Shown piece after piece: positions 10,095 through 39,772 of a stretch of DNA of 64,000 nucleotides; positions within the stretch are counted from its first letter, which is position 1, and every line of letters begins with the position of its first letter. The translations under genes and the position numbers were made by a program. The notes under the pieces are model-generated. The model was given only the letters and a program-made list of their open reading frames with translations. It ran no database searches and was not told where the DNA came from. The DNA comes from Candidatus Omnitrophota bacterium (GTDB lineage: Bacteria > Omnitrophota > Gorgyraeia > Zapsychrales > Zapsychraceae): the NCBI GenBank assembly GCA_029261055.1, contig JAJDCA010000037.1:10291-74290 (forward strand). Reading direction: 5' to 3'.

Positions 10095-10934
10095 ATGCGT
10101 CTTTATTGTATTTTAGTGATTCTATTAGGCTTAATTTGTTTTTCTGTAAAAGCATATGGTCAGGATGAACAGTCGCAACCAAAGTCTTATTTCCCACATG
10201 GAACATTTAGTGACAATGGTGACGGTACTTATTTAATGGAGGTTTTTACGCAAGATATGATTGATAATGGACTTTATCCTGATGGGTTTGATTCCTTGCC
10301 CGCTCAGATGAAGTCGAGCTATCTATCTACCATTAAAACACTATTATCAACATCATATGAGGAGGGAACTAAAATTTACCTCGTGCCAGATGGTGGAATA
10401 TGCAAGATATTATCTACAGCTAAAGATGTGGTAGTTCCAGGAGGCAATAACAGATTTGAGTATAATCGGGTGGATTATACGACATATTCTACTAATCGTG
10501 CAGAGTTTAAGTCTATTACCTTTTATGGGCAGCAGTGTTGTAAGGTCAAGCTTAAGGGAGCCTTTAGTGTTCCTGAAGATGAAATTCCTCTAATTGGATG
10601 GTCTAATATAACTACACAAATTTACGATTGTAATTCTGGCAACATATCAACAGATGCTAATGGTCAAATTCAAATTAATAGCATTAATTTGGGGAGTCCT
10701 ATTGCATCAGCTCCTATATACGAAGTTAGATGGGATACAACAGGTTGGCGCGGAGAGCCTGGACTTACTCATACTCGCTTCAAAAAATTTACTGGTGAGT
10801 TTATAATGGAGGTGCCTTGTGATAGTTGTAGGATTGTTAAATTTCAGATTTCAACTAGGACAGGATCTTATTCTCTTATATATGCTTTAAAATGTGGAGC
10901 CGTCTACTGTAATGGATACGAGAATGGGTTCTAG
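10095..10934 (+). CDS. secreted protein (signal peptide)
   Basis: MRLYCILVILLGLICFSVKAYG signal peptide; RBS AAAGGACAACT. Confidence 0.55.
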   Translation: MRLYCILVILLGLICFSVKAYGQDEQSQPKSYFPHGTFSDNGDGTYLMEVFTQDMIDNGLYPDGFDSLPAQMKSSYLSTIKTLLSTSYEEGTKIYLVPDGGICKILSTAKDVVVPGGNNRFEYNRVDYTTYSTNRAEFKSITFYGQQCCKVKLKGAFSVPEDEIPLIGWSNITTQIYDCNSGNISTDANGQIQINSINLGSPIASAPIYEVRWDTTGWRGEPGLTHTRFKKFTGEFIMEVPCDSCRIVKFQISTRTGSYSLIYALKCGAVYCNGYENGF

Positions 10935-27764: not shown

Positions 27765-27838
27765 TCGCTCTTAGTGTAGTGGCAGCACCAGAAATTCTAA
27801 ACTTCTTAGTCAGGGTTCGATTCCCTGGGGGCGATCCA
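27765..27838 (+). tRNA. suppressor-type tRNA, anticodon CUA (amber), CCA encoded
   Basis: Acceptor TCGCTCT/GGGGCGA, D stem GTGT/GCAC, anticodon arm AGAAA-TTCTAAA-CTTCT (U33, A37), T arm CAGGG-TTCGATT-CCCTG, TCCA. Confidence 0.6.
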
Positions 27839-29174: not shown

Positions 29175-29379
29175 AAAATTAAAGAGCTTTGAGCTGACTG
29201 CCAGTGGATCTACACACACTCAGGTTAATTTGGTTTTTAACGCTAAAAACAAAGAAGAAGCTGAAAAATTAGTAGATGAAATTCTATCTAATGGACATTT
29301 CAACGGTAAAAAACTAGAATATAGTTTTGATTACACAAATTTCGAAGACATAGATGTAGTGGAGGTTGAAAATGAATGA
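29164..29379 (+). CDS. hypothetical small protein
   Basis: ORF track. Confidence 0.4.
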   Translation: MSDKKLKSFELTASGSTHTQVNLVFNAKNKEEAEKLVDEILSNGHFNGKKLEYSFDYTNFEDIDVVEVENE

Positions 29380-29992
29380 ATGGCGCAAATATCCAAAAAC
29401 TACTAGGTTATCAAAATGTAGAATGAGAATAACTGAAAAGCTCGACGGAACAAACGCTGCAATTGAAATTATAGAAAAGCTTGATGGACCCAATATTGTT
29501 TTATCATATTCTCGCAATAGGCAACTTGGTGAGCCTAAACCCTATACTACAGTACTTGAAGATGGTTCTGAAAAAACATACATGTCTAAAGAGTATGAGC
29601 ATTTTGGATTTAGAGAATGGGTAAAAGAAAACGCTAAAAGATTATCGGAGCTATTGCCGGTTGGTATTCATTATGGAGAATGGTGTGGTCCTGGAATACA
29701 AAAAAATCCTTTAGGGTTGCCTAGCAAGAGGTTTTTTCTATTTAATGGATACCCCAAGGACACGGAAGTAGAAAAGGCACAGGGTATAGGGCTATTTGAA
29801 GTACCAACGTTATATATTGGTAAATTTTCTATAGAAAAAATAGAAGAGGTTCACAATGACCTACTATCAAATGGCACCAAGGTGTTTAATTCAATTGAAC
29901 CAAAGTCACCAGAGGGAATAATCATTAACGCATTTGGTACAAGATTCAAGAAAACAGAATTAGATTTACCAAAGGGTCTTATTGATGAATAG
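29372..29992 (+). CDS. ATP-dependent RNA/DNA ligase-family nucleotidyltransferase (RNA-ligase-like)
   Basis: Motif I EKLDGTN (KxDG), motif III-like HYGEWCG, motif IV PEGIIINAFG, motif V RFKKT. Confidence 0.5.
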   Translation: MNEWRKYPKTTRLSKCRMRITEKLDGTNAAIEIIEKLDGPNIVLSYSRNRQLGEPKPYTTVLEDGSEKTYMSKEYEHFGFREWVKENAKRLSELLPVGIHYGEWCGPGIQKNPLGLPSKRFFLFNGYPKDTEVEKAQGIGLFEVPTLYIGKFSIEKIEEVHNDLLSNGTKVFNSIEPKSPEGIIINAFGTRFKKTELDLPKGLIDE

Positions 29993-30739: not shown

Positions 30740-32197
30740 ATGTTGTTTACGGAAAAAAAAGCTAAATTGGCTCTAAAAAAGGTCTTTGGCTATGATGAAT
30801 TTAGACCTGGACAGTTAGAAGCGATTATGGACTTGTCAAGCGGTAAAGATGTTCAGGTTATTTTTCCTACATCACACGGCAAGTCTATTTGTTATCAAAT
30901 TCCCGCCATATGCTCCAAAGGCACTGCGCTAGTTGTGTCTCCACTAATTTCATTGATGAAGGATCAGGTTGATGCACTACTTGAAAAGGGCGTAGATGCG
31001 GCATTTCTAAATAGCACACTCTCACCTAAACGACAAACTGAAGTTATGGACATGTTGAAGAATGATGAGCTTAAAATATTATATATAACTCCAGAAAGAT
31101 TCAAGTCGTCATCCTTTAAAACCACACTGATTGATTCAAATATAAGCATTTTTGCAGTTGACGAATGCCACGCCATAAGCGCCTGGGGTCATGATTTTAG
31201 ACCAGATTATAGACGATTGGGGTCTGTCAAGGAAGCATTAGACGTGCCAACCATTGCGTTAACAGCAACGGCAACCACTGTTGTTCAGGACGATATTGAA
31301 ACACAACTAAAAATGCAAAATGTTTCAAAGTATATTCATGGATTCGATAGACCAAATCTAGAATACAGTATAGAACTATTCTCCGATCAATTTCTAAAAG
31401 AAACCGCCATTAAAAAACACATCATAAAGATAGCAAAAGAGGGTGGAGACCCAGCAATTTTTTATTGTGGCACAAGGAAGCAGACAGATCGTATCGTCCA
31501 GATTGTTAAAAGTATCAAGGGTCTAAAAATACCGTCAATTGCAAAATATCATGGAGCAATGAAAGACAAGGACAGAGAAAAGGTACAGGGCGACTTCATG
31601 AGTGGCAAAACACCATGGATTGCTGCGACTAATGCATTCGGTATGGGGATCGACAAAGCTAATGTCAGGAATATAATTCATGTATCGGTCCCTGGGTCGG
31701 TAGAGGCGTGGTATCAAGAGGTTGGACGTGCAGGTCGTGATGGTAAGGATTCTCGGTGCAATCTTTTCTACTGTCAGCGTGATTTAGGTTTGCAGTGGTT
31801 CTTTATTAATATAGCAAATCCATCAAAATATGTTTTTGAAAATGTTTGGGATCTTTTATGGTCATATGGTGATTCTGTTGTGCAAATGACACAGAAGAAA
31901 TTTTATGATGATTATAAGATTAGATGTGGTAGTTCAGATTCGTCTGGCTGTATCAGTACTGCTGTTCGTGTTTTGAAAAAGTCAGGTGCCATAGATCCGA
32001 ATTCTAGTAGAGGCCAAATGGTTTTAATGGATTATCCTAATCGTAGACCAGTAGAACTGTATTTAGATTTTGATAAATTGGAAGAAAAAGAAAAAATGGA
32101 TAGGGACAGATTTGGTAGAATGCTCAATTTTATCAATGGGTATGGCTCTATTCGAAATAGGGTATTGAGATACTTTGGAGAAAGTACTAATGAGTAA
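30740..32197 (+). CDS. recQ: RecQ-family DNA helicase
   Basis: FRPGQLEAI, Walker A PTSHGKSICYQIP, VVSPLISLMKDQV, DECH box VDECHAISAWGHDFRP, motif VI QEVGRAGRDG. Confidence 0.85.
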   Translation: MLFTEKKAKLALKKVFGYDEFRPGQLEAIMDLSSGKDVQVIFPTSHGKSICYQIPAICSKGTALVVSPLISLMKDQVDALLEKGVDAAFLNSTLSPKRQTEVMDMLKNDELKILYITPERFKSSSFKTTLIDSNISIFAVDECHAISAWGHDFRPDYRRLGSVKEALDVPTIALTATATTVVQDDIETQLKMQNVSKYIHGFDRPNLEYSIELFSDQFLKETAIKKHIIKIAKEGGDPAIFYCGTRKQTDRIVQIVKSIKGLKIPSIAKYHGAMKDKDREKVQGDFMSGKTPWIAATNAFGMGIDKANVRNIIHVSVPGSVEAWYQEVGRAGRDGKDSRCNLFYCQRDLGLQWFFINIANPSKYVFENVWDLLWSYGDSVVQMTQKKFYDDYKIRCGSSDSSGCISTAVRVLKKSGAIDPNSSRGQMVLMDYPNRRPVELYLDFDKLEEKEKMDRDRFGRMLNFINGYGSIRNRVLRYFGESTNE

Positions 32198-34467: not shown

Positions 34468-34785
34468 ATGAAATTGCAAATTGCAGATCGTCTTTGTAGC
34501 TTATGTGAGTGTACTGAACTAGAAGAATTCTTAAAAACAAGTGGCAACGACATCAATATTAAGGCGTTTAATTTTACATGCGATGTAGACGGTTTAAATA
34601 TTCTTACTATTCAGTATAGTGAGACCAAAAGTAACGATGAACTGTATTGTGCTACATTTACAGTAAATGACATGTATTTAGTTTCCAGTGTAATTATTTT
34701 AGATAATGAGCCAGTAGATAAGTCTAAAAATAAATCTAATCAGAACTCTTTAGAGTGGTTTCAAGATTTTATGAAAAAGTCATAG
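34468..34785 (+). CDS. hypothetical acidic protein
   Basis: RBS TAGGAG; ORF track. Confidence 0.45.
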   Translation: MKLQIADRLCSLCECTELEEFLKTSGNDINIKAFNFTCDVDGLNILTIQYSETKSNDELYCATFTVNDMYLVSSVIILDNEPVDKSKNKSNQNSLEWFQDFMKKS

Positions 34786-34853
34786 TGTAGGTTAATACTG
34801 GTAACTAACTTATGACTATTAATAAAAATCATTATACAAAACACCAATAATAC

Positions 34854-34861
34854 TGTATAAT
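34854..34861 (+). promoter_or_regulatory. extended -10 element TGTATAAT
   Basis: TGTATAAT 7 nt upstream of the GAGG that opens element B. Confidence 0.45.
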
Positions 34862-34868
34862 ATATACA

Positions 34869-34938
34869 GAGGCCACGATTCGCGCTTCCTTCTAATATTT
34901 AATTTTTGGTTTAAAAACTAGCGCAATCAATTTCCTCT
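34869..34938 (+). ncRNA. CUUCCUUCUAA-motif structured element, copy B
   Basis: GAGG-CCACGATTC-GCGC-TTCCTTCTAA...GCGC-AATCAATTT-CCTC with nested helices GAGG/CCTC, GATT/AATC, GCGC/GCGC. Confidence 0.35.
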
Positions 34939-34962
34939 AATTCAAATAAAAAAAATAAGCAT

Positions 34963-35067
34963 AGGCTACAAGGCTAGCTTCCTTCTAATCGGTTTCCAAG
35001 CGGATGGTTGTGGGTTCGACTCCCACCTATAGTTTTGTCTATAGTAGCTCAATGGTAGAGTATCCGC
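34963..35067 (+). tRNA. tRNA-Gly(UCC)-like gene with 3' half upstream of 5' half, embedded in motif copy C
   Basis: The 5' motif part AGGCTACAAGGCTAGC-TTCCTTCTAA is at 34963-34992. The 3' half TTTCCAA-GCGGA-TGGTT-GTGGG-TTCGACT-CCCAC-CTATAG is at 34993-35032. After TTTTG comes the 5' half TCTATAG-TA-GCTC-AATGGTA-GAGT-A-TCCGC at 35038-35067. The halves form a complete cloverleaf. Confidence 0.35.
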
Positions 35068-35112
35068 CCTAAAAGTTTCCTTAATATCCTGTGTATTAAA
35101 TACTAAACGATA

Positions 35113-35186
35113 AGGCTATGTAAGTAGCTTCCTTCTAACTAATCAATCTTAGACGTTGAATCAAACTAGCTACCGCAATCTCCTTT
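35113..35186 (+). ncRNA. CUUCCUUCUAA-motif structured element, copy D
   Basis: AGGCTATGTAA-GTAGC-TTCCTTCTAA...GCTAC-CGCAATCTCCTTT. Confidence 0.3.
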
Positions 35187-35203
35187 TTAAGAAAGTTAAT
35201 ATA

Positions 35204-37306
35204 ATGAAGCAAAAAATTGCACTCAAGTACTCCAGCTCCATATTTATCAGCAACAATGACTCTAGTGATCACAATAACGCTATCTTGGTTGCTTCAATTA
35301 ATTCTGAATTGATGCAAAATGGGTTTATGCTAAGTCAAGATTCTAGCACTAAATTAGGTATGCTTAGTGATGTTGAACTTACTGACATATATAAAGACAT
35401 TGTTACTGAAGTCCGTATCCTCGTTGGTAACGATGTAGACTATCAACCAATGTACCCAAACTTTCCCGAACAGGTAATGAATGCTTCTGCATCAGAGCTT
35501 TTTCTTAATGCTATCACCCACTACTGGACACATGGCGAATGGAGTCCTAGCTATGAAAAATTACCTCGTGAAATAAGTTTTGAGAATGTTAATTTTAAAG
35601 AGATAAACTTAATTCATGATGTGGAATTTAATAAAATTTTCGAAACAATACTATCTTCGAATGATTCTATTTCTGACTTTGACAGAGAGACCATTGCGTG
35701 GTTTGTTGACACTCATAAGCAATGCAATTATGAAAACTTAAAAATTCCATTTAAAGAAAATATGTGCTTTCTTGCTGGATTACTTGCTGCAAACAATGAA
35801 GACATATCAAAACTACCACAAACGGCAACAGATGTTCTTAGGATTGCCACTGTGTTTTCTGGTGGAGATATATCATTAGCAGAAAATACTAAATTTAAAT
35901 CATTGCCACGAAAATTGCGTCGAATGTTAGTTTCTGCTTTAGAAAACGTGGCAAATTTAGATGATCTTATGCGACATAGAGGTAAATGGATTCGTCTGTT
36001 TCATAATCTACATATAAGTGAATTGACCAAATCGGCAAACTTGCTTGATATGGTGGAATTGATTAGAAGTGGCAAAAATATTGAAACATTTAATAGTAAG
36101 GTTGAGTTAACTATAGCGAACAAAGATCCGTTAGCCGCTATAGCTCTTTTAAAGACTCGCCCAGGGGATTTTGCTCGTCGCATCAGTTGTGTTTTGGGAC
36201 TAAAAGTTCCTGGACGTAGAACAGTTGTAGAAGAGTTTTTAAAAGTTGCTAATCAGGTATCAACGCGAGTTTTGCTTCAATTGATGGGCAGTTTAAAAAT
36301 TCGTGGAAATTCTACAACCGATAAAAGGGTAATATTTCCCAAGGGTAGTATTCAGAAGGCACAAATTGTCAATACAGAATTACCTAAGCTTGGCATAAGA
36401 GCAACGTTGGCTTTAACCAATGGTGTGAAGGAAGTACTGACTGAGAGATTTTCTAGCCTGGATAATCTTGGATGTGTCTACATTGATCCAGATCTTAAAA
36501 AATGTCCACTGCCATCTCAGCAGCGCAGTGCTTCAGAAGGTTTAATACAGGTTGCAAGAGGTACACATCTGCCAATCGGAGATGATAAAAATACATTAAG
36601 ATTTTTTGTATACTGGATAGGGCAAGATATAGATTTAAGTGCTACATTTCATGATGAAAATTTTAGAACTATTGGAAATGTTTCATATAGGAATCTACAA
36701 AATAAACTATTTGGATCATATCATAGTGGAGACAAGACCAAAGCTCCAAATGGCGAATGTGAATTTATTGACGTAAATATTGACGATGCCGTTAAATCTG
36801 GTACAAGATATGTGGTTATGAATGTGTTAGTGTATAGTGGTCCAAAATTCTCTGAGCACGAAAAATGTTATGTTGGATGGATGACTCGTTCTCAACCCAA
36901 TAGTAATGAGATATTTGACGCTAAGACAGTAGATCAAAAGATTGACCTAGCTTCAGAATGCCTAAACTCTATTCCAGTCGTGTTTGATTTAGTAGAAAGA
37001 AAGGCAATATGGACAGACTTATCAACCTCCAAAAATGTTCAGTGGGGTGGCAATAATGTAGAATCCAATAGGGCTACCATCGAGGACAAGTTGGAAGCTA
37101 TTACTAGCTTAAACAATAAGACTAATTTGTTTGAGCTATTTGAACTACATGCAATGGCTAGATCTACTGCTATTGTAGATGATCCCGAAAATGCAGAGAT
37201 GATATTTTCTGTAGAAAATTGTGGTGACATTACGCCAAGTAACATCATGTTAATAAATTCTGAATATTTGACCGATAGTACAGCAACAAAGAAAGAAAAT
37301 GTATAA
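35204..37306 (+). CDS. large hypothetical protein (700 aa)
   Basis: ORF track. ATG 35204 preferred because TTG 35156 lies inside element D. No recognised motif. Confidence 0.5.
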   Translation: MKQKIALKYSSSIFISNNDSSDHNNAILVASINSELMQNGFMLSQDSSTKLGMLSDVELTDIYKDIVTEVRILVGNDVDYQPMYPNFPEQVMNASASELFLNAITHYWTHGEWSPSYEKLPREISFENVNFKEINLIHDVEFNKIFETILSSNDSISDFDRETIAWFVDTHKQCNYENLKIPFKENMCFLAGLLAANNEDISKLPQTATDVLRIATVFSGGDISLAENTKFKSLPRKLRRMLVSALENVANLDDLMRHRGKWIRLFHNLHISELTKSANLLDMVELIRSGKNIETFNSKVELTIANKDPLAAIALLKTRPGDFARRISCVLGLKVPGRRTVVEEFLKVANQVSTRVLLQLMGSLKIRGNSTTDKRVIFPKGSIQKAQIVNTELPKLGIRATLALTNGVKEVLTERFSSLDNLGCVYIDPDLKKCPLPSQQRSASEGLIQVARGTHLPIGDDKNTLRFFVYWIGQDIDLSATFHDENFRTIGNVSYRNLQNKLFGSYHSGDKTKAPNGECEFIDVNIDDAVKSGTRYVVMNVLVYSGPKFSEHEKCYVGWMTRSQPNSNEIFDAKTVDQKIDLASECLNSIPVVFDLVERKAIWTDLSTSKNVQWGGNNVESNRATIEDKLEAITSLNNKTNLFELFELHAMARSTAIVDDPENAEMIFSVENCGDITPSNIMLINSEYLTDSTATKKENV

Positions 37307-37308
37307 TT

Positions 37309-38052
37309 ATGCATAGCCCTGAACAAGATAATCAAGAAGAAAATATAATAGAGGTATTACAAGATGTGGCTGATTCCGTAATAGCTGCACCTAACAAAAA
37401 TGCATCTGAAGCACAGATTGCTATTACAGGTAATGAAACTGAAAATGAATCTCTAATCTTATCTCCGAATCTAATGTTAGATATGGTTGATATAGAAACA
37501 GACCTGGATAGACTAACTGTCAATTGTACAGATGTAAAAGATGACGAAATTGATGAAATTAAACGACAACTACATGCAAATATGGTTCTTTTGGACAAAT
37601 CCGCATTAGGATTATCTGCAATACAGATTGGCATTCCAAAAAGAGCTTTTGTGATTAAGGTGATCAACAAAGATAGACCAATGCGCCGCAAACTATCATT
37701 TGATGAAAAATATAATTTAATATATTTTATTAATCCAGAGATTATATTTTCGCAATACCCTCGTCATATGGTTGAATCATGTCTTAGTATCCCTCGTGAA
37801 AAATTTCGTGTTGAAAGATGCTCTCGGGTTAGGATTACAGATGATCTAAATGGTGAACAAATGTTTAAAAATAAACTAGCGCATGTTGTACAGCATGAAT
37901 TTGATCATACTCGTGGAATTACACTGTACCAGTCTGGTAATCAAGAAATCGTACAAGTAGATGACAATGCTAGGGTAGATATTGGTTTCCTTAGCGAACG
38001 TGAAAGACAATCTTTATTTGAGACAACTGGGAGGTTGGATTATGGGACTTAA
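37309..38052 (+). CDS. def: peptide deformylase with ~75-aa acidic N-terminal extension
   Basis: Motif I GLSAIQIG, motif II ESCLSIP (EGCLS), motif III QHEFDHTRG (HExxH). Confidence 0.8.
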   Translation: MHSPEQDNQEENIIEVLQDVADSVIAAPNKNASEAQIAITGNETENESLILSPNLMLDMVDIETDLDRLTVNCTDVKDDEIDEIKRQLHANMVLLDKSALGLSAIQIGIPKRAFVIKVINKDRPMRRKLSFDEKYNLIYFINPEIIFSQYPRHMVESCLSIPREKFRVERCSRVRITDDLNGEQMFKNKLAHVVQHEFDHTRGITLYQSGNQEIVQVDDNARVDIGFLSERERQSLFETTGRLDYGT

Positions 38053-38326: not shown

Positions 38327-38397
38327 GGCTCTGTAGTTTAATGGTAAAACAGCCGATTCTAACTCGGTATTTGCAGGTTCAAATCCTGTCGGAGTCT
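38327..38397 (+). tRNA. second suppressor-type tRNA, anticodon CUA
   Basis: Acceptor GGCTCTG/CGGAGTC, D arm GTTT-AATGGTA-AAAC, anticodon arm GCCGA-TTCTAAC-TCGGT, T arm GCAGG-TTCAAAT-CCTGT. Confidence 0.6.
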
Positions 38398-39280: not shown

Positions 39281-39772
39281 TTGTCAAGGCAGAAGTATTA
39301 TGGAAGAAAAAAAACCCATAGATTAGTTATTATATTTTCTATGGTAGTATTATTGATTGGTCTTGTCTCTTCTTACTACGGGACAAGACCAATAATTATA
39401 CAGGGATTAAGTATGTTTCCATCTATATCTCATAAAGATAGATTTATATCTATTGAGAATTTCAATATAAATAGATTTGACATTGTATCTGTAGTTGTAA
39501 ACAATGAAAACCTATGCAAGAGAGTAATTGGCTTGCCTAAAGATGTAATTCAATTTACTAAAAATAATATTATAATAAATAATGAACTTATGACAGAATA
39601 TTATGTTCTTGATATTTCAGATTACGAGATTGGCAAATCATACACTCTTAAAGACGATGAGTATTTTGTAATGGGTGATAATCGCAATAATTCTCATGAC
39701 TCTAGAGCATTTGGACCTATTAAAAAAATTCAGATAAAGTCAAAAATACTTCATAGGGTTTGGAGACAGTAA
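39281..39772 (+). CDS. lepB: signal peptidase I (S26 family)
   Basis: Basic N-region plus TM, Ser box GLSMFPSIS, Lys box CKRVIGLPKD, box E VMGDNRNNSHDSRAFGPI; TTG start with RBS TAAGGACGG. Confidence 0.75.
   Translation: MSRQKYYGRKKTHRLVIIFSMVVLLIGLVSSYYGTRPIIIQGLSMFPSISHKDRFISIENFNINRFDIVSVVVNNENLCKRVIGLPKDVIQFTKNNIIINNELMTEYYVLDISDYEIGKSYTLKDDEYFVMGDNRNNSHDSRAFGPIKKIQIKSKILHRVWRQ

Follow-up and report, generated by a model that had tools for sequence, protein, structure and literature searches.

The 64,000-nucleotide (nt) stretch analysed here, called the window below, covers positions 10,291 to 74,290 of contig JAJDCA010000037.1 (assembly GCA_029261055.1, filed under Candidatus Omnitrophota bacterium) and is part of a 155-kb phage contig. 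At 34867-35187 it holds an array of three small RNA units, situated directly upstream of a gene for a 700-amino-acid (aa) protein (35204-37306); array and gene are on the forward (+) strand. Inside the middle unit, at 35000-35067, is a tRNA-Gly-like sequence that reads back to front, with the 3' half upstream of the 5' half. A sequence-only reading had taken these halves for a circularly permuted tRNA gene, for two remnants of a tandem duplication or for a recombination scar. None of the three fits: the halves lie within a larger conserved RNA with covarying helices. Here, we describe this RNA, which recurs beside relatives of the 700-aa gene in phages and bacteria, and compare it with YrlA, the Y RNA that is bound by the protein Ro60.

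The scaffold RNA and the three-unit array

The array is composed of unit 1 (34867-34939), unit 2 (34960-35093) and unit 3 (35110-35187). Each unit has two helices, P1 and P2. Helix P1 is formed by the paired 5' and 3' ends, which are AGAGG/CCUCU in unit 1, CAUAGG/CCUGUG in unit 2 and AAGG/CCUU in unit 3. It is followed by an internal loop, in which CYAU is opposite AAYUU, and by helix P2 (GUAGCU/AGCUAC in unit 3), which ends in an invariant C-G/U-A. At the start of the apical loop is the invariant single-stranded segment UCCUUCUAA, which is also seen in the loop of unit 1. The complete layout can be written as NNNNGG-CYAU-(helix strand)-CUUCCUUCUAA-(variable)-(C)UAG-(helix strand)-AAYUU-CCNNNN, and the invariant signature as GGCYAU...CUUCCUUCUAA...AG...UUYCC. 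In the window, the 12-mer GCTTCCTTCTAA is found at 34884, 34977 and 35127, that is, three copies within 34884-35138, where 0.37 would be expected by chance. A copy with one mismatch, ACTTCCTTCTAA, at 25684 belongs to a fourth scaffold unit (25667-25739, + strand), located 9.5 kb from the array. The fourth unit is preceded by TATAAT at 25657-25662 and ends 13 nt before a tRNA-Met gene (25753-25826), and processing of this tRNA by RNase P would free it.

The helices are supported by covariation. In alignment A2, which comprises 25 short scaffold units from the window and related loci, 84.9% of the cells are paired, compared with 59.2% in shuffles, and 114 cells are changed on both sides. The covariation score is 0.672, while shuffled alignments gave 0.175 (0 of 500 as high) and alignments with the pairing partners slid gave at most 0.21. 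A covariance model of the scaffold, R1, had units 1 and 3 and the copy at 25667 in its A2 training set, and these score 62, 56 and 61.6 bits, respectively. Unit 2 was not part of the training set. With filters off, it is recovered by R1 at 27.4 bits (E 1.9e-6) as a full-length match with an 84-nt insertion in the apical loop, and this insertion is the "permuted tRNA". Only one further match, a weak one (E 0.5), was found over the 64-kb window, and no family of Rfam 15 covers the scaffold. A type III toxin-antitoxin repeat array was also considered and rejected, because the units, unlike near-identical repeats, have diverged and covary, and because no nuclease fold is present in the protein.

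A consensus scan places a sigma-70-like promoter, TATACA-17-TATAAT, at 34833-34861 (+ strand, 10 of 12 matches), ending 6 nt before unit 1. As read in the sequences of the relatives, TTGACA/TATAAT-like hexamers likewise precede the first unit of each array, and the site is predicted to act as a promoter.

The tRNA-like module of unit 2

The single-stranded segment TTTCCAA (34993-34999) connects the invariant motif to the module. The module itself (35000-35067, + strand) is made of a stem strand, the variable loop, the T arm, an acceptor hairpin, UA, the D arm and a second stem strand, in this permuted order. The first strand is the 3' strand of the anticodon stem, GCGGA (35000-35004), followed by the variable loop TGGTT (35005-35009) and the T arm GTGGG-TTCGACT-CCCAC (35010-35026). 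The two acceptor strands, both CTATAG (35027-35032 and 35039-35044), are connected by the loop TTTTGT (UUUUGU in the RNA, 35033-35038), which closes the acceptor. After TA (35045-35046) come the D arm GCTC-AATGGTA-GAGT (35047-35061), a single A (35062) and the 5' strand of the anticodon stem, TCCGC (35063-35067). The sequence elements at 34993-35067 agree with the earlier description. Together, the two halves form a complete cloverleaf in permuted order, and the minimum free energy fold of 34960-35093 yields P1, P2 and the four-way junction of the cloverleaf. The earlier description had the halves pairing into a full cloverleaf with a 6-bp acceptor. The pairing and its six base pairs hold, but the acceptor has an additional U.U at position 1:72, is capped by a loop of 4-6 nt and has no discriminator-CCA.

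Neither ARAGORN nor the Rfam tRNA model, the tRNA finders run on the locus, called a tRNA at the module, while about seven ordinary tRNAs were called elsewhere in the window. ARAGORN, which also models permuted tmRNA, found no tmRNA in the window. A terminator-like call on the T arm and CTATAGTTTT was rejected, this element being the tRNA-like hairpin and not a convincing terminator. The 3' half of the module is closer to the tRNA-Gly(UCC) at 26662 than to any other tRNA of the window; it had been called nearly identical to it, which is too strong for 31 identical positions of 41. The excess likeness to the phage's own tRNA-Gly could be due to gene conversion or to chance.

The closest relatives, contigs that encode a 65-66% identical protein, keep the synteny of the locus (a MotA/ExbB-like gene, further genes, the array, the 700-aa gene and peptide deformylase). 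In two of these relatives, L118 and L120, the insert of the middle unit is an orthologous permuted module; over the unit, the identity is 75% and 72%, respectively. The acceptor has changed in a compensatory manner to CCCCGAC/GUCGGGG with a 7-nt loop. The cloverleaf with its 3' half before its 5' half is real, and the conservation of this topology excludes an assembly or rearrangement artefact; an ordinary tRNA-Gly, which would have implied such an artefact, is not present at this site in the related genomes. The segment UUUCCAA is AUUUCAA in L118 and AUUAUAA in L120 (ATTTCAA and ATTATAA in the DNA), and is thus not conserved. It was previously regarded as the anticodon loop and is better described as a linker. 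In L122 and L123, the slot of the middle unit is occupied by a plain hairpin. These loop changes and the plain hairpin indicate that the module is an exchangeable cargo of the apical loop, and that the glycine anticodon is not under selection.

The same permuted module was found by a pattern search within scaffold units of about 20 further loci, from both phages and bacteria. At the position of UUUCCAA, the linkers of other loci have 8-16 nt and are not anticodon-loop-like. In an alignment of 22 modules from phages and bacteria, A3, 94.7% of the cells are paired, compared with 71.9% in shuffles, a figure that includes pairings partly set by the search pattern. The anticodon-like stem, which was not imposed by the pattern, is 84.5% paired and has both-side changes at all 5 pairs. 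The Levitt pair 15:48 (A3 columns 12 and 68) also covaries; it is G15:C48 in 15 modules, A15:U48 in 5, including that of the window, and another combination in 2 (read by column, C:G 15, U:A 5, other 2). Most bacterial modules have a 7-bp acceptor with a tetraloop cap. The module is optional, being absent from many units and from all Firmicutes loci examined.

Among 13 modules with a linker of at least 7 nt, five have NCCA directly after the 3' strand of the acceptor, where 0.2 would be expected by chance. In these modules (L002 2151, L006 2730, L009 146 and 292, L050 3573), a 7-bp acceptor is followed by NCCA and a linker of 7-17 nt. Since their number is far above chance, it suggests that opening of these five modules may yield tRNA mimics in two pieces, with CCA at an end. 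A scaffold unit of one jumbo-phage locus (L005 2657-2790) contains a tRNA-like domain in the normal, non-permuted order. This domain starts with a 4-bp acceptor and a D arm; an arm capped by TTCG takes the place of the anticodon arm, and the T arm follows. The array of this locus also holds a permuted module.

The 700-aa protein

The protein encoded at 35204-37306 (+ strand), the presumed partner of the RNAs, belongs to phrog_33734, for which no function is assigned, and its relatives are named "TerD family protein" by NCBI. The family is large, with more than 1000 word-index matches and 3546 clusters at 50% identity (E at most 1e-3). A confident AlphaFold2 model made with 25 homologues has a predicted local distance difference test score (pLDDT) of 85 and a predicted template modelling score (pTM) of 0.83. 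In this model, the protein comprises an N-terminal helical-repeat domain (residues ~1-440) and a C-terminal TerD-type β-sandwich (residues ~455-610).

The low-deviation, long structural alignments of the N-terminal domain are with Ro60. It aligned to PDB entry 1yvp over 293 residues at 3.4 Å, and also to the phage Ro60 9l5y and to Rsr 2nvo. Foldseek against BFVD retrieved family members in Lactobacillus phage LpeD and in Campylobacter phages, and furthermore a TROVE protein of a crAss-like phage (E 6e-3, probability 1.0, 336 columns); against the PDB, it found the TerD domain alone. The structural similarity of the predicted model to Ro60 is weak. Searches of PDB sequences with phmmer and with a profile of the protein gave nothing, and no Pfam family was matched by the protein or by 25 family members. 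The TROVE and vWA_Ro60 families had no match in the 700-aa protein, nor in any of the 19 open reading frames (ORFs) of the window that were scanned against Pfam; these include all six of at least 400 aa, the other ORFs and the rest of the phage contig being outside the scan.

Linkage of the scaffold RNA to the gene family

Relatives of the 700-aa gene are accompanied by the scaffold in most loci. In the IMG/VR viral loci that encode a relative of the protein, with identities down to 27%, R1 found 71 units in 30 of 32 loci, 22 of these units being training sequences. Ten matches were obtained in GenBank phages, namely XacN1, Xoo-sp13, MT835874 (a faecal phage scaffold) and, weakly, Rhodococcus phage Weasels2, all in unannotated gaps. 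A set of 80 bacterial loci gave 147 units in about 76 loci, none of them from the training set. These loci belong to Paenibacillus, Brevibacillus, relatives of Bacillus, Planctomycetes, Acidobacteria, Chloroflexi, Armatimonadota, gamma-proteobacteria and one cyanobacterium. The pairing of array and gene thus recurs in more than 100 loci, with up to eight units per locus, and the linkage to this single protein family is both tight and ancient. All units are on the strand of the gene and nearly all abut it, upstream or, in some lineages, downstream; the array is 3' of the gene in L013, L018, L023, L024-L032, Weasels2, L055, L057, L067, L101 and L108.

Clustering of the ORFs of 117 loci revealed no second conserved protein in the neighbourhood. 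R1 has no match in phage Bxz1 over the 49 kb that surround its genuine Ro60 gene, and nucleotide searches of GenBank phages with the locus gave no matches. In the Xanthomonas jumbo phages XacN1 (L034 1944-2323) and Xoo-sp13 (L035 2195-2338), the units occupy the unannotated stretches that precede ORF396 and Xoosp13_353, respectively, and both phages have a nucleotidyltransferase gene about 1.5 kb upstream. In Paenibacillus sp. H1-7 (L104 6507-7772), a gene for the RNA 3'-end 2'-O-methyltransferase Hen1, a component of RNA repair, is directly downstream of the 700-aa gene. This neighbour is anecdotal and not general among the 117 loci.

Comparison with YrlA

YrlA is bound by Ro60 and has a central domain that mimics tRNA, with the T arm, an acceptor-like stem-loop and the D arm in this order (PMC4201824). 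It has been reported in bacteria and in mycobacteriophages, beside Ro60 genes (Chen et al. 2014, PMC4201824). [quoted passage not shown] Covariation of positions 15:48 was also reported by Chen et al. (PMC4201824). The YrlA of M. smegmatis has a long acceptor, is cleaved by RNase P and receives CCA. The known systems compared here are YrlA (Rfam family RF02553; PMC4201824; structure preprint 10.1101/312249) and the Ro60 and Rsr proteins, including phage Ro60 (PDB 9l5y, PMC12135203). It had been stated that no arrangement of the kind seen in the window is known for phages; the acceptor-closed, tRNA-like Y RNA domains reported beside mycobacteriophage Ro60 genes (PMC4201824) are such a case.

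In a permissive Rfam scan of 34500-35500, the sole meaningful match was to YrlA (RF02553), at 35002-35065, with 37.3 bits and E 2.3e-6. The match spans model positions 23-85, which correspond to the tRNA-like domain of YrlA. Its score is below the gathering threshold of 69 bits for RF02553, and the modules of the relatives score 32-47 bits. The YrlA-like RNA of phage Bxz1 (L124 29980-30056), which lies upstream of the genuine Ro60 gene gp220, itself reaches 32.5 bits, so this threshold misses known phage Y RNAs. From the order of the domains in YrlA, it follows that the "permuted" order is that of a tRNA-like domain attached via its anticodon stem, with its acceptor end closed.

The likeness to YrlA extends to several features. 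The order of the V region, T arm, acceptor-like stem-loop and D arm is the same, closed by a stem toward the ends of the RNA, and the module is joined by its anticodon-stem side to a stem made of the 5' and 3' ends of the RNA. U8, a D loop of the G18/G19 type, the T loop and the covarying 15:48 pair are conserved. In both systems, several small RNAs on the same strand are beside the gene of the presumed protein partner, and both occur in phages. Some of the modules carried by the scaffold have a long acceptor and then CCA, as in the YrlA of M. smegmatis. However, the scaffold, with GGCYAU, UCCUUCUAA, AG and UUYCC, is unrelated to GNCGAAN0-1G, the scores are below the Rfam threshold and not every unit carries the tRNA-like module. 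In the neighbouring protein, there is a TerD domain but no TROVE or vWA_Ro60 signature. As in Ro60 and Rsr, the helical-repeat domain of this protein precedes another globular domain, small structured RNAs flank its gene, and it is found in jumbo phages and bacteria. It differs from them in having no detectable sequence or profile homology and a C-terminal TerD domain instead of vWA.

Discussion

The back-to-front tRNA-Gly of the window is a tRNA-like module, carried in the apical loop of a small scaffold RNA that, with the 700-aa protein, probably makes up a Y-RNA-like ribonucleoprotein (RNP) locus. This locus resembles the Ro60-Y RNA system but is apparently distinct from it. Given the missing GNCGAA motif, the score below threshold and a neighbour other than TROVE, we file the RNAs as a Y-RNA-like family with another scaffold and another partner. 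Several observations weigh against this interpretation. The + strand of 34860-35200 lacks the Ro60-binding motif GNCGAAN0-1G, and the protein shows no likeness to TROVE by sequence or profile, either in Pfam or by hhalign against a Ro60 alignment built from homologues of Bxz1 gp220 (probability 0.05-0.15%). The fold of unit 2 (34960-35093) is not significantly more stable than that of shuffled sequence (z -1.44). The T, D and acceptor pairings of A3 were partly imposed by the module search pattern, and about 17 nt separate the last unit from the start codon of the 700-aa gene, which would be compatible with a cis-regulatory role.

Based on the comparison with Ro60-YrlA, a mechanism can be proposed. 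The array (34867-35187) would be transcribed from the predicted promoter at ~34833-34861, probably together with the 700-aa gene at 35204. The apical loop of each unit would serve as a slot for variable modules. That of unit 2 holds a tRNA mimic attached by its "anticodon stem", which gives the permuted reading order. By analogy with Ro60 and YrlA, the helical-repeat/TerD protein would bind the conserved scaffold. The tRNA-shaped elbow, formed by the T and D loops and the Levitt pair, would then project and could dock a factor that recognizes tRNA. Modification enzymes, RNase P, the CCA-adding enzyme and repair or defence enzymes are candidates, and the RNA may tether the docked factor or, as a decoy, titrate it.

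An alternative is that this is a true Ro60-YrlA system, in which the 700-aa protein would be a very divergent TROVE homologue with vWA replaced by TerD, and the RNAs would be divergent Y RNAs. The Foldseek match to a phage TROVE protein in BFVD is in agreement with this, the YrlA score of the window is no worse than that of the RNA beside the bona fide Ro60 of Bxz1, and the logic of the locus is the same, with several small RNAs beside a protein gene, one of them having a tRNA-like domain. We nevertheless hold it to be unlikely, in view of the lack of a TROVE signal in Pfam and in profile-profile comparison, a signature (GGCYAU, UCCUUCUAA) that is related neither to GNCGAAN0-1G nor to GGUCCGA, the absence of GNCGAA from the locus and the absence of a scaffold match at the Ro60 locus of Bxz1. 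Rather than free-standing RNAs, the units could also be cis-acting leader elements that control the downstream gene, for example autoregulatory binding sites for a protein or attenuators, with the module sensing a tRNA-binding factor. In most loci, the gene starts immediately after the array, and the two seem to share one promoter. A purely cis-regulatory role is made less likely by arrays that are 3' of the gene in several independent lineages, by the lone unit at 25667, 9.5 kb away and in front of a tRNA-Met gene, and by loci with as many as eight units, and we consider its chances small.

Circularly permuted tRNA genes are found in Cyanidioschyzon merolae and in some other algae and archaea. 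They yield real tRNAs via a bulge-helix-bulge, the splicing endonuclease, circularization and RNases P and Z. The window shares with them a 3' half upstream of the 5' half on one strand and a short linker at the acceptor end. A genuine permuted gene for tRNA-Gly(UCC), joined at 31/32 and opened at the acceptor end, would restore a full cloverleaf with a canonical UUUCCAA loop. The likeness of its 3' half to the phage's tRNA-Gly, an RNA ligase gene 5 kb upstream and the NCCA that follows the 3' strand of the acceptor in some relatives would be in accordance with such a gene. Yet the anticodon-loop sequence is not kept in the orthologues, position 1:72 is U.U, and the end is not compatible with CCA addition. 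The flanks are the non-tRNA helices P1 and P2 with the invariant motif, not a bulge-helix-bulge or an intron-like junction. Moreover, the phage already has an intact tRNA-Gly(UCC), the slot is a plain hairpin in L122 and L123, and the acceptor is capped by a tetraloop in most bacterial loci. Such a gene is, in our view, highly improbable. Two-piece, permuted tmRNA genes are known from alpha-proteobacteria and cyanobacteria, and they too have a permuted tRNA-like domain, in which the acceptor strands are joined by an intervening segment that is excised. In the window, by contrast, neither a tag reading frame nor pseudoknots are present, and ARAGORN reports no tmRNA. Further candidates are remnants of a tandem tRNA duplication, a recombination scar, a phage attachment site with a tRNA 3' half and a false match to a dimeric tRNA. 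Phage attachment sites often carry tRNA 3' halves that begin in the anticodon loop. Dimeric tRNAs can imitate matches to YrlA (Chen et al., PMC4201824). To these explanations we attach almost no weight. The arrangement is conserved with compensatory substitutions in phages and bacteria, no complete tRNA flanks the module, and the divergence of the modules among the relatives excludes recent copying. Duplication remnants, a scar and an attachment site are excluded by the covariation, and the attachment site and the dimeric-tRNA artefact are also rejected because the module is embedded in a covarying scaffold.

Y RNAs of bacteria with tRNA-like domains were so far known only as partners of Ro60. 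In the locus described here, the same acceptor-closed mimic is carried by a different conserved scaffold, beside a different, uncharacterized protein family that spans jumbo phages, Firmicutes, Planctomycetes, Acidobacteria, Chloroflexi, gamma-proteobacteria and cyanobacteria. Should the Y-RNA-like interpretation be correct, RNA binding could be assigned as the function of a sequence-orphan "TerD family" protein, and a widespread structured RNA that is absent from Rfam 15 would be added. It would also provide an independent system in which to ask why cells and phages tether tRNA look-alikes to proteins. The Xanthomonas phages XacN1 and Xoo-sp13, Paenibacillus and Brevibacillus are available as cultured models. 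A broader and rather doubtful proposal is that the scaffold RNAs and the helical-repeat/TerD protein form a widespread, Ro60-independent RNP family in which the RNA is a modular display platform. RNase P would then open the NCCA modules of phages, giving two-piece tRNA mimics that stay on the protein and could possibly be charged, for use in a conflict over the cleavage or repair of host tRNA. Literature searches for TerD with Ro60, Y RNA or tRNA-like, for a permuted phage tRNA and for the motif sequence found no description of the locus, although an earlier one is still possible.

Other features of the window

The array is surrounded by genes related to RNA and translation. These are an RNA ligase (PF09414), an RNase T-like exonuclease, a DEAD-box helicase, a peptide deformylase and a signal peptidase, with coordinates 29366-29992, 24924-25562, 30740-32197, 37309-38052 and 39281-39772. 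The peptide deformylase gene comes directly after the 700-aa gene. At 27604-27740 (+ strand), the Rfam tRNA model scores 43.9 bits over 137 nt, in a segment that is not called by ARAGORN. An acceptor, a D arm and a T arm can be recognized in this segment, in which about 64 inserted nt separate the anticodon arm from the T arm; it could be an intron-bearing tRNA or another tRNA-like RNA. Two tRNAs with the anticodon CUA, of the amber-suppressor type and labelled Pyl by ARAGORN, are located at 27765-27838 and 38327-38397 (+ strand). Despite their presence, TAG is the stop codon of 27 of the 90 long ORFs on the + strand.

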